Assembly: GCA_963579135.1 (NCBI GenBank)
Contig: CAUZFB010000008.1
Span: forward strand, 2,049 to 66,048
Direction: 5' to 3'
Origin: Dehalococcoidia bacterium
Lineage (GTDB): Bacteria > Chloroflexota > Dehalococcoidia > Lucifugimonadales > Australimonadaceae
Length of the DNA: 64,000 nucleotides
How positions within the stretch are numbered: position 1 is the stretch's first letter; each line of letters begins with the position of its first letter. The translations under genes were made by a program, and so were the position numbers. Under the pieces are notes generated by a model. The model did no database searches. It was given only the letters and a program-made list of their open reading frames with translations, and was not told where the DNA came from. Below, piece after piece: positions 6,030-27,591 of the stretch.

Positions 6030-6201
6030 TGCACTCTCCTTACACGCCTAGGTTTCAGGCGCAACGTTACCCCAATCCAGCGAGGGACGCTACGTCCCGA
6101 CCATGAGCACGGACGCTCGTTGACCCATGTTTGGGCGCACCATAGACTTTCGGCGGGTTGCTATCGGCTCGCAACGACTCGTGAGTAGAGGGGGTGAGGG
6201 G

Positions 6202-6831
6202 ATGTCCTGGATTACTGAAACAGGTGTCGATTCTGAGGCCGTCGAGGAAGAAGCGCGACGGATGGCTGACCAGAAGCCTGGTAGAGCGCGCTCCGGCGGG
6301 GGCCGCATGTCGCCGATCATGAGTGTGATGTCGCTGAACCCGCGGGCGCTGAAGGGCGTGCGGGACATGAATTCCGCGATCACCTTCGGGACCTCGGCGC
6401 TGAGCCGGGTGCAGGAAGAGGCGATCGCGACCACAGTGGCACAGGCGAATCACTGCCGTTACTGAACGATGGCTGACGGAGAGTTTCTCCGTCAGCACTC
6501 CGAGGACCCGGAGCTCGCTAGCCATGTGATCCATGACTACCGCAACGGGAACTGGGCCCCGAAGACCCGAGCGATGCTGGATTACGCGTCAAAGCTAACG
6601 TGTCAGCCGCAGAGTGTCACAAAGGCGGACTTCGACGGCCTGAAGGAACAGGGGCTCACCGAGGACGAGATACTGTCAAACGTGCTCCTCACGTGCACGT
6701 TCGCGTTCATGACGAGCTTGGCGGACGGGGCTGGGCGTGGAGAGCCTGCCGAGGGTCGCCAGGAGTGGGTCGAGGAATGGATTCAGGGACCCGCTCGCGA
6801 CCAGGAGTGGCTGCTGAACCCGAAGTCGTAG
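6202..6831 (+). CDS. AhpD/carboxymuconolactone-decarboxylase-like peroxidase-related protein, probable selenoprotein (in-frame TGA 6463..6465 read as Sec; CxxU motif)
   Basis: Track ORFs 6127..6465 and 6469..6831 share one frame and are separated by one TGA. The joined 209-aa product has full-length family architecture (MSWI..., ..SRVQEEAIATTVAQANHCRY-TGA-..., ..PKTRAMLDYASKLT.., ..GLTEDEILSN..). The TGA sits where the second Cys of the CxxC motif is expected. ATG 6202 is preceded by a GGGGGTGAGGGG SD. Confidence 0.7.
6472..6496 (+). promoter_or_regulatory. putative bacterial SECIS hairpin
   Basis: Perfect 11-bp stem GCTGACGGAGA / TCTCCGTCAGC with apical GTT, starting 6 nt after the TGA. The apical G/U loop lies 18-20 nt downstream of the UGA. 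Confidence 0.55.
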
Positions 6832-7020
6832 GCAGAGCGAGGGGGGGGGCGCGGAGCGGAGTTCCCGTTGGGGGGGCTTGAGGACGCGAGAGAGATTCTT
6901 CTCGGCCTACGGCACGATCAGAATGACGTAAATGGGGCCTGGCCAAACCGGCTGGTGACCACGCAGGTTGACAGTCAGGCCGCTGGTTTGCCAGATTGCC
7001 TGAAATAAAGGTAGAAACAC

Positions 7021-26310: not shown

Positions 26311-27387
26311 CTACTCGCTATCGCCCTCTTGGAGGAACCGCGCTTGCTCGTCTTGCAGTAGCGCATCAACGATGTCATCGAGGCGTCCCTGCCCGGCGAG
26401 GATCTCCGGCAAGCCGTGAACGGTGAGGTTGACTCGGTGGTCGGTCAGCCGATCCTGGGGAAAGTTGTACGTGCGAATCTTCTCAGAACGTTCGCCTGTT
26501 CGCACTTGCAATTTGCGTGATACGGCAGCGGCTTCGGCCTGCTCTCGCATCTCCATCTCCAGCAGGCGAGACCGCAACACTGTCATCGCTTTGGTCTTGT
26601 TCTTGAACTGGGAGCGCTCGTCCTGACACACAGCCATAATCCCAGTGGGGATATGCACGATACGAACCGCGGTGGCAACCTTGTTGACGTTCTGTCCGCC
26701 TGCGCCGCCGGAGTGGAAGATGTCGATGCGCAGTTCGCTGGCAGGGACGTCGAAGTCCGATTCCTCAGCCTCTGGCAGAACCACGACTGTCGCCGTGGAG
26801 GTATGGATGCGTCCCTGCGTCTCGGTCACGGGCACGCGTTGCACCCGATGAACACCACCCTCGTGCTTCATAAGGCGGAACGCATCGGGGCCTACGACTT
26901 CGAAAAGGACCTCTTTGAAGCCGCCCTGCTCACTGCCGTTGGAGTCCATGACTTCGACCACTAGCCCGTGCCTCTGGGCGTAGCGGGCGTACATCCGATA
27001 AAGGTCTGCGGCGAATAGGCCCGCTTCATCGCCTCCCGTGCCTGCCCGGAGTTCGACGATCGCGTTCTTGTTGTCGTTCGGATCTTTGGGTAGCAGCGCC
27101 GAGTACAAATCGCCCTCAAGCTCAGTGATACGCGCCGTGAGGCCAGGGACCTCCTCCTTGGCCATGGACGCCATCTCAGCGTCATTATCGTTGATGAGGG
27201 CACGAGTGTCAGCCAATTCCTGCTGCGCCGCTTTGAGCCGCTGGTACGTCTCCACGACGGGCTGCAGGTCAGCGCGCTCTTTGGCCAGTTTGCTCAGCCG
27301 CGCATGGTCACCGGCGACGTCAGGACTCGCGAGGAGTTGGTCGATCTCCACGAACCGAGCCGCTAGTTTTTCGAGCTTTTCCAGCAT
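26311..27387 (-). CDS. prfA: peptide chain release factor 1
   Basis: Start at the ATG giving MLEKLEKLAARFVEIDQLL.... PVT tripeptide (RVPVTETQGR) and GGQ (SGGAGGQNVNKV). 358 aa. Confidence 0.95.
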   Translation of the reverse strand: MLEKLEKLAARFVEIDQLLASPDVAGDHARLSKLAKERADLQPVVETYQRLKAAQQELADTRALINDNDAEMASMAKEEVPGLTARITELEGDLYSALLPKDPNDNKNAIVELRAGTGGDEAGLFAADLYRMYARYAQRHGLVVEVMDSNGSEQGGFKEVLFEVVGPDAFRLMKHEGGVHRVQRVPVTETQGRIHTSTATVVVLPEAEESDFDVPASELRIDIFHSGGAGGQNVNKVATAVRIVHIPTGIMAVCQDERSQFKNKTKAMTVLRSRLLEMEMREQAEAAAVSRKLQVRTGERSEKIRTYNFPQDRLTDHRVNLTVHGLPEILAGQGRLDDIVDALLQDEQARFLQEGDSE

Positions 27388-27591
27388 CTTCGTGTCCTGT
27401 CGATGGCCTATCAAAACAAGGCCCCCGCATAGCGGAGGCCGGTCGGAGAAGTATAGCACCGACCAGGCGTCGGCCGGAGGGCGCTGCGCTCCCACAAGAA
27501 TGCTGTCAATCGTAGCTGAGACTACTGCCCTAGCCTCCAAACATCGTTGTAGACTTGTCGGGATTTTTGCTGCTGGAACGGTTGTTGCCAC

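Follow-up and report, generated by a model that had tools for sequence, protein, structure and literature searches.

Mycobacterium tuberculosis AhpD carries the motif E-x11-C-x-x-C-x-x-x-H and reduces AhpC using dihydrolipoamide. The nucleophile that attacks is the second Cys of this motif, and a His/Glu relay activates it. Selenocysteine (Sec), where it occurs, generally takes the place of a catalytic redox Cys. An AhpD-like protein (COG2128) with a CxxU motif was described as a new selenoprotein family in 2005 from 27 Sargasso Sea sequences (PMC1088965), and “AhpD-like 1” ranked fourth in abundance among the selenoprotein families of the GOS data, where 299 Sec forms and 902 Cys homologues were counted (PMC2398784). 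The “AhpD-like protein” is also listed, under TIGR01926 and with CxxU, in a 2026 review (PMC13188914). Two Dehalococcoidia, bacterium UBA1141 (49 selenoprotein genes) and isolate 10f4566d (46), are among the ten bacteria richest in such genes in BSepDB, for which only species having a Sec biosynthetic system were searched (PMC13326102).

Positions 6202-6831 of the window (the whole 64-kb stretch of DNA analyzed here) very probably form one gene for an AhpD-like thiol/selenol oxidoreductase (TIGR01926) of a marine member of the Chloroflexota (SAR202/Dehalococcoidia), with the UGA at 6463-6465 specifying selenocysteine. Judged by its sequence, the gene is an instance of a known selenoprotein family in a clade already known to be rich in Sec, and an earlier note on this DNA was right that the family had been described before (PMC1088965, PMC2398784, PMC13188914). 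Every check proposed in that note that could be run favored its reading of the TGA as a Sec codon. The family, the CxxU motif and the type of SECIS have been in the literature since 2005, and the gene opens no new question. It resembles the published family in its TIGR01926 membership, in a CxxU whose predicted Sec occupies the second Cys position, in its marine origin, and in a putative SECIS lying directly 3′ with a small apical loop that contains a G. There is no difference at the level of the family; what sets the window's allele apart is an Asp in place of a His and a lineage-specific 11-bp stem, while the clade studied here differs in being almost entirely of the Sec type, its nearest non-Sec relatives having Gly or Leu rather than Cys.

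The joined gene and its redox motif

Two open reading frames, 6127-6465 and 6469-6831, follow each other in one frame with a single TGA (6463-6465) dividing them, exactly at the coordinates given in the earlier note. The junction codons AAT CAC TGC CGT TAC TGA ACG ATG GCT GAC read N-H-C-R-Y-stop-T-M-A-D, and the wider context is AQANHCRY-TGA-TMADGEFLRQH. Translated from ATG 6202, with an MSWI.E N-terminus common to the relatives, the joined product has 209 aa and the TGA is its residue 88. Under a codon-usage model built from 25 confirmed genes in the 64-kb window, no in-frame TGA in that DNA other than 6463-6465 has coding signal both before and after it; the model was used in place of a filter on GC3 only, which in a window of 62.5% GC returned dozens of false candidates. 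The features of the locus are collected in Table 1.

Table 1. Positions in the window of the gene, its motif codons, the hairpin and neighboring features.
Feature	Position	Strand	Basis
Promoter-like site TTGACC-17-TAGACT, 5′ of the gene	6120..6148	+	Consensus scan only; 1 found against 0.3 expected; weak
Shine-Dalgarno-like purine-rich stretch GAGGGGGTGAGGGG, abutting ATG 6202	6188..6201	+	Read from the sequence
AhpD-like (TIGR01926) selenoprotein gene (predicted), complete	6202..6831	+	209 aa, Sec88, stop TAG; profiles, PDB homologues, orthologues in 170 loci
Glu73 codon, Glu of E-x11-C-x-x-C/U-x-x-x-H	6418..6420	+	Counted from the sequence
Cys85 codon TGC, first residue of CxxU	6454..6456	+	144 of 145 unique segments have Cys; PDB homologues have the first Cys of CxxC here
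UGA, probably read as selenocysteine (Sec88)	6463..6465	+	TGA in 167 of 169 located loci; second-Cys alignment; conserved putative SECIS 3′
Full 11-bp hairpin, window form	6472..6496	+	Outer 4 bp (6472-6475 with 6493-6496) lineage-specific
Asp92 codon GAC at the conserved His site (CxxUxxxH)	6475..6477	+	G pairs with C6493 and lengthens the stem
Conserved core of the putative SECIS: 7-bp helix 6476-6482 with 6486-6492, loop GUU 6483-6485	6476..6492	+	Conservation, codon entropy
Compensated frameshift (+1 G, then +2 AG 13 nt later), LGV to AGRG	6727..6744	+	Codon-by-codon comparison with eight close relatives

That the joined 209-aa protein is CMD/AhpD-like, as had been claimed, was borne out when it was scored against profiles with a Cys placed at the TGA. 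It passed the cutoff of TIGR01926 (“peroxidase-related enzyme”; 97.6 bits against 81.8), with residues 36-169 on positions 29-163 of the 178-position profile, and it matched Pfam CMD (30.1 against a cutoff of 23). Homologues of known structure with the AhpD core (PDB entries 3c1l, 2prr, 2pfx, 6k40, and 2oyo) were found by phmmer with E values from 2e-19 to 4e-13. Both the TIGR01926 and the PDB alignments cross the junction uninterrupted (query 36-171). At the stretch around the TGA, 3c1l, 2prr, and 2pfx read N-x-C-x-Y-C-x-x-A-H-G, with the TGA column falling on the second Cys; the TGA is therefore at the second Cys of CxxC, which agrees with the C-R-Y-U proposed in the earlier note. The window's protein and these structures (3c1l being Mlr4105) can be aligned over about 135 residues and share the stretch N-x-C-x-Y-[C/U]-x-x-A-H-G. 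They differ in that the structures have Cys and His where the window has UGA and Asp, and in that they lack an N-terminal insert of roughly 25 aa (residues about 11-35) found in the window's subclade.

The full motif in the window's protein is E73-x11-C85-R-Y-U88-T-M-A-D92. As in AhpD proper, a Glu lies 12 residues before the first Cys (E73 and C85), and the spacing E73-x11-C85-x-x-U88 is that of M. tuberculosis AhpD, the predicted Sec standing at the nucleophilic second Cys. The VQEE around Glu73 is invariant or nearly so among the relatives, and the role of Glu73 is presumably that of the Glu in M. tuberculosis AhpD. AhpD proper, however, has a His four residues after its second Cys, and at the corresponding position the window has Asp92 instead of the proton-relay His; the two proteins are also distant in sequence. 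Moreover, no Prx/AhpC gene is adjacent to the gene in the window or in the L005-type gene context, and no lipoamide-system gene is adjacent to 6202-6831 in the window. The model NF041238 (AhpD_rel_CFYUT), the “hypothetical protein 1” of the Sargasso Sea, belongs to the same superfamily, but its motif is C-F-Y-U-T as opposed to the C-R-Y-U-T of the window and its architecture comprises 357 residues; the joined protein falls outside this family, scoring 37.7 bits where the cutoff is 175. It also scored far below the cutoff of NF053654, a model for a related (seleno)protein.

The hairpin 3′ of the UGA

Directly downstream of the TGA, the sequence GCTGACGGAGA-GTT-TCTCCGTCAGC (6472-6496) can form a hairpin of 11 perfect pairs (arms 6472-6482 and 6486-6496) whose loop, GTT at 6483-6485, lies 18-20 nt past the A of the UGA. 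Among the possible folds of 6463-6520 it is the one of minimum free energy, at −27.7 kcal/mol (z = −3.65), and none of 200 shuffled sequences folded as well. The earlier note had described the perfect 11-bp hairpin, and its coordinates and pairs are correct, but the element that is conserved is smaller and consists of the GUU loop and the seven pairs next to it. In an ungapped alignment (A2) of 133 unique 48-nt segments, reduced to 125 distinct sequences for the hairpin, six of the seven core pairs form in 100% and the outermost, an A-U pair, in 115 of the 125; each of the outer four pairs forms in only 14-55% of sequences.

The pair that closes the core covaries, being GC in 87 of the 125 sequences, AU in 23, CG in 12, and another combination in 3. 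Seen as codons, Phe is encoded by TTT where a Glu GAG precedes it and by TTC where a Gly GGG does, whereas after Ala GCG a Leu (TTG) takes its place. The GUU of the loop never varies, and its G, which occupies the third position of a codon for Glu, Gly or Ala, was present in 133 of 133 segments. Codon choice is also much more restricted within the hairpin than outside it: the six hairpin codons had a mean relative codon entropy of 0.23, and 84 conserved codons elsewhere one of 0.76 (Mann-Whitney p = 1.2e-4). His is encoded by CAC (141 of 142), Leu by CTC (140 of 145), and the Arg at codon +9 by CGT (133 of 145), while Gly codons in the hairpin are GGA or GGG only, the Gly at +6 being GGG without exception (106 of 106). 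Locus L009, a form with Gly at the TGA column, encodes the same peptide HGGFLR with CTG and CGG and retains only five of the seven stem pairs, at −5.4 kcal/mol. Because this stem has decayed at synonymous sites, the hairpin must have been selected for itself and is not a by-product of the peptide.

The published bSECIS model specifies a loop of 3-9 nt, an upper stem of 4-16 bp, a distance from UGA to loop of 16-37 nt, a G within the first two nucleotides of the loop, in most cases with a G or U next to it on the 3′ side, and a minimum free energy of −7.5 kcal/mol or lower (PMC13188914). With its 3-nt GUU loop, its stem of 7-11 bp, its spacing of 17 nt, and a hairpin energy of −18.9 kcal/mol (the family mean is −11.1 kcal/mol), the window's hairpin falls within all four ranges, and its loop starts with G, then U. 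The suggestion that the distance of the apex suits a bacterial SECIS thus stands, and the covariation and the synonymous constraint add to it; the hairpin 3′ of UGA 6463-6465 is supported as a bacterial SECIS and is a predicted target of SelB. With the fdhF-type SECIS of Escherichia coli and the bSECIS consensus it shares a stem-loop right after the UGA and a small loop opened by G and then U, and its 17-nt spacing lies in the permitted interval of 16-37 nt (PMC13188914). It differs from the fdhF type in having a minimal loop of 3 nt and no bulged U. A search of the whole 64-kb window against Rfam at the gathering threshold gave no matches, and a search of 6400-6560 at E ≤ 10 gave noise only (Acido-1, mir-2147). 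To our knowledge, Rfam contains no general model for bacterial SECIS elements.

Relatives and the allele in the window

A protein search returned about 30 homologues (54-91% identity), all of them called as proteins of 119-120 aa that start just past the TGA, and on their contigs an upstream ORF ends exactly one codon ahead of the called start. Scans of metagenome and genome collections yielded 160 further loci, for a total of 170 related loci with 45-91% amino acid identity. The samples are marine, with contigs from deep or polar water, and all named genomes are Chloroflexota, Dehalococcoidia or SAR202, amounting to about 77 species-level genomes. In the 171 sequences made up of these loci and the window, the column of interest could be located by pattern in 169, and 167 of these (window included) have TGA. 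On direct inspection, L141 and L048, the latter a frameshifted contig, have a stop at the TGA column as well. The two exceptions are L009, with GGG (Gly), and L010, a 728-bp contig with TTA (Leu); the Gly of L009 is not a TGA translated under another genetic code, since the codon itself is GGG. Above about 40% identity, no homologue with a Cys was found; the closest forms that lack Sec have Gly or Leu, and in full-length homologues with these residues the ORF is undivided.

On both sides of the TGA, from codon −45 to +84 in 145 unique segments, conserved residues are retained even though the codons for them change freely, and we therefore conclude that purifying selection has acted on one continuous protein. 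The gene neighborhood is GFO/IDH/MocA - X - HIBADH-like - amidase in the window's subclade and MFS - X - RRM - UvrC in another (X being the gene studied here), and no operon partner conserved across subclades was found.

Against this background, the window's copy is unusual. At the position of Asp92, a residue that the earlier note passed over, 130 of 133 unique sequences have His, and Asp is found only in the window, L094, and L023. L094 is 97.6% identical in nucleotides to the His-bearing L001, and L023 is 93% identical to the His-bearing L024, so the C-to-G change that replaces His by Asp has had at least three independent origins. In each case the new G pairs with a C (6493 in the window) and closes the sole mismatch between the core and the three outer pairs. 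The perfect 11-bp stem of the window is thus the outcome of a C-to-G change in a conserved His codon. It is conceivable, though we rate the idea as rather doubtful, that this recurrence reflects selection on the recoding RNA structure overriding a catalytic residue, where a Sec, deprotonated at physiological pH, would no longer need the His/Glu proton relay on which the Cys enzymes depend.

Two further changes accompany H92D, namely R172S and the replacement of LGV by AGRG through a compensated frameshift (6727-6744) that is specific to the window's lineage, and all three lie at columns that are at least 90% conserved. The 630-nt gene, this frameshift included, occurs without a single base difference in three independent assemblies (L171-L173) made from different samples, which excludes sequencing or assembly error as the source of Asp92 and AGRG. 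Because the window's protein departs from its relatives at three nearly invariant places, its allele may have altered or reduced activity. A stronger form of this reading holds that the family consists of genuine selenoproteins and that the window's allele, having lost its His and with its RLADGLGV segment changed, is functionally altered or heading to inactivation. The three substitutions at columns of 90% conservation or more and an identity of only 84% to the nearest relatives would fit such a course. Nevertheless, the frame, Cys85, the UGA, and the putative SECIS are intact, the last being stronger than average, the allele is fixed in the three assemblies, and the frameshift was compensated instead of being left open. 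In addition, the change from His to Asp recurs in two other lineages and must therefore be tolerated. We consequently regard this reading as distinctly improbable, although it fares best among the alternatives to an ordinary selenoprotein gene.

Decoding of the UGA

A second alternative accepts one continuous protein but not Sec: the UGA would be passed by near-cognate read-through (Trp, Cys or Arg) or would be a sense codon. Downstream hairpins can stimulate read-through in other systems, and Sec machinery was not found in the 64-kb window. No selA, selB or selD was detected there by Pfam and NCBIfam models on 29 large ORFs, and ARAGORN identified no tRNA gene, tRNA-Sec included. Nor was a tRNA-Sec found by ARAGORN in about 1.7 Mb (1.73 Mb) of relatives' loci, an absence expected by chance, and a tblastn search of the relatives' flanks (≤10 kb each) with an approximate E. 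coli query found no SelD, which says little. A release factor gene at 26311-27591 was considered as a candidate RF2, but it encodes RF1 and is uninformative about UGA decoding. On the other side, UGA ends 5 of the 22 Pfam-confirmed genes of the window, including both immediate downstream neighbors of the gene, and is therefore no general sense codon here. The codon in question stands at the catalytic Cys of a redox motif, which is the signature position for Sec, and the hairpin fits the SelB-type bSECIS model down to the invariant loop G (PMC13188914). Finally, orthologues with TGA occur in UBA1141 (L134) and isolate 10f4566d (L135 and L137), which are documented Sec users with 46-49 selenoproteins (PMC13326102). 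Recoding to an amino acid other than Sec is thus very improbable. Because neither the window nor the flanks of the relatives' loci yielded selA, selB, selD or tRNA-Sec, we infer the Sec competence of the window's genome from those relatives. The gene also marks its source organism as a probable selenocysteine user, in agreement with recent work that places the selenoproteomes of marine Dehalococcoidia among the largest in bacteria.

Still less probable is a pseudogene, in which a Cys codon (TGC or TGT) would have mutated to TGA, leaving a dead gene with a hairpin that is a by-product of the peptide HGEFLRQH. TGA is indeed one base from TGC, and the window's copy has further odd changes in H92D, R172S, and the frameshift at 6727-6744. 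However, 167 of 169 loci, some with as little as 45% identity, have the TGA, amino acids are kept and synonymous change is free on both sides of it, and neither the synonymous constraint in the hairpin nor the covariation of its closing pair is explained by the peptide alone. The compensation of the frameshift likewise means that the frame is being maintained. For the family as a whole, the comparison of relatives has already refuted the pseudogene reading through this conservation.

The least probable reading, that 6202-6831 holds two separately translated genes of 87-112 aa and 120 aa, the second starting at ATG 6469, draws on an ATG two codons past the TGA in 97 of 133 unique sequences and on gene callers that give exactly this split, but it is almost certainly wrong, since 35 of the 133 have no ATG, GTG or TTG in codons +1 to +4, so that the downstream half cannot start independently in those lineages, the TIGR01926 and PDB alignments span the junction and neither half is a domain alone, the break would fall inside the CxxC active-site motif, and the Gly and Leu homologues are undivided; the check for separate halves in homologues therefore favors a joined gene.

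Under the preferred reading, that of a UGA decoded as Sec in a single AhpD-like gene, the following course of events is envisaged. As the ribosome nears the UGA, the mRNA just 3′ of it would fold into the stem-loop, with the GUU loop starting 17 nt past the codon. By analogy with E. coli, this SECIS would bind SelB carrying Sec-tRNA(Sec), and SelB would deliver Sec in competition with release factor 2. The predicted product is a 209-aa AhpD-like enzyme with a C85-R-Y-U88 redox center at the place of the AhpD CxxC. If M. tuberculosis AhpD is a valid guide, Sec88 at the nucleophile position would attack a peroxide or disulfide substrate and Cys85 would resolve the intermediate, giving a selenenylsulfide that a cellular reductant, acting as electron donor, would recycle.

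The main value of the locus is for annotation. All public calls split the gene and its roughly 170 relatives into pieces of 62-87 aa and 119-120 aa with no Pfam match on record, much as had been predicted of gene callers, and annotations of SAR202/Dehalococcoidia therefore miss a redox enzyme found across the clade. With its covariation and synonymous constraint, the SECIS alignment of 133 sequences is well suited to teaching as a clean example, and it could serve as the seed of a covariance model of the family.

Recurrent loss of the conserved histidine

The conserved His of the CxxUxxxH motif has been replaced by Asp at least three separate times, through an identical C-to-G change in the window's gene and in two related loci, L094 and L023, and in all three cases this change turns a 7-bp SECIS stem into a perfect one of 11 bp. 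The recurrent substitution may reflect a conflict, or a trade-off, between the RNA structure and a catalytic residue. Two TGA-containing paralogues, far apart from each other, are present in some Dehalococcoidia genomes (L135 and L137 in CAXXFI010000001.1; L148 and L149 in JADFPD01).

Variants at the redox positions

In the nearest non-Sec homologues (loci L009 and L010; proteins P0027, P0029, P0032, and P0015), the Sec column is occupied by Gly or Leu instead of Cys, and Cys is found there only in homologues that are much further removed, those with solved structures (3c1l, 2prr, and 2pfx). The otherwise invariant G of the SECIS loop is A in the Leu form, and the Gly form has a decayed stem. 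In a single metagenome contig (SMVA01368667.1, locus L039), both redox positions are TGA (TGA CGG TAT TGA); the sequence represents a UxxU variant or else an error.

Features of the window's subclade and lineage

After the MSWI.E N-terminus, members of the window's subclade, including L094 and the His-bearing L001, have an insert in which charged residues and Gly are abundant (..SEAVEEEARRMADQKPGRARSGGGR..) and which is absent from other subclades and from the solved homologues. Two changes are confined to the window's own lineage, R172S and a compensated frameshift that replaces the conserved 'LGV' with 'AGRG'; three independent assemblies agree on each of them.

Features of the selenoprotein gene, its relatives, and other genes
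Feature	Location	Detail
Asp codon for conserved His	window 6475-6477	
Asp codon for conserved His	L094, around 6969-6971	
Asp codon for conserved His	L023, around 391-393	
Non-Sec codon at Sec column	L009:3196-3198	GGG
Non-Sec codon at Sec column	L010:339-341	TTA
Double TGA	L039:1602-1613	
N-terminal insert	window 6232-6306	∼25 aa, residues about 11-35
R172S	window 6715-6717	
Compensated frameshift	window 6727-6744	+1 G, 13 nt on +2 AG
RF1 (prfA) ORF	window 26311-27591 (-)	426 aa from first GTG
Arginyl-tRNA synthetase	L171:1-1136 vs L172:1-1136	immediately before the first window position

Stop codons and other gene calls

Among 22 Pfam-confirmed window genes, a small sample, the stops were TAG (13), TGA (5), and TAA (4). 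With these 22 genes, TGA seems rare as a stop for a genome of 62.5% G+C, and its rarity may be tied to the clade's heavy use of Sec.

The RF1 match starts only at about residue 66-73 of its ORF, and the true prfA start is probably some 65 codons 3' of the ORF start. The arginyl-tRNA synthetase call differs between assemblies: it is a single 561-aa protein in two of them and pieces of 190 and 334 aa in JGI contig Ga0114996_10000203, which is 99.99% identical to the window across the overlapping part. The split call is probably due to one indel or an assembly error.
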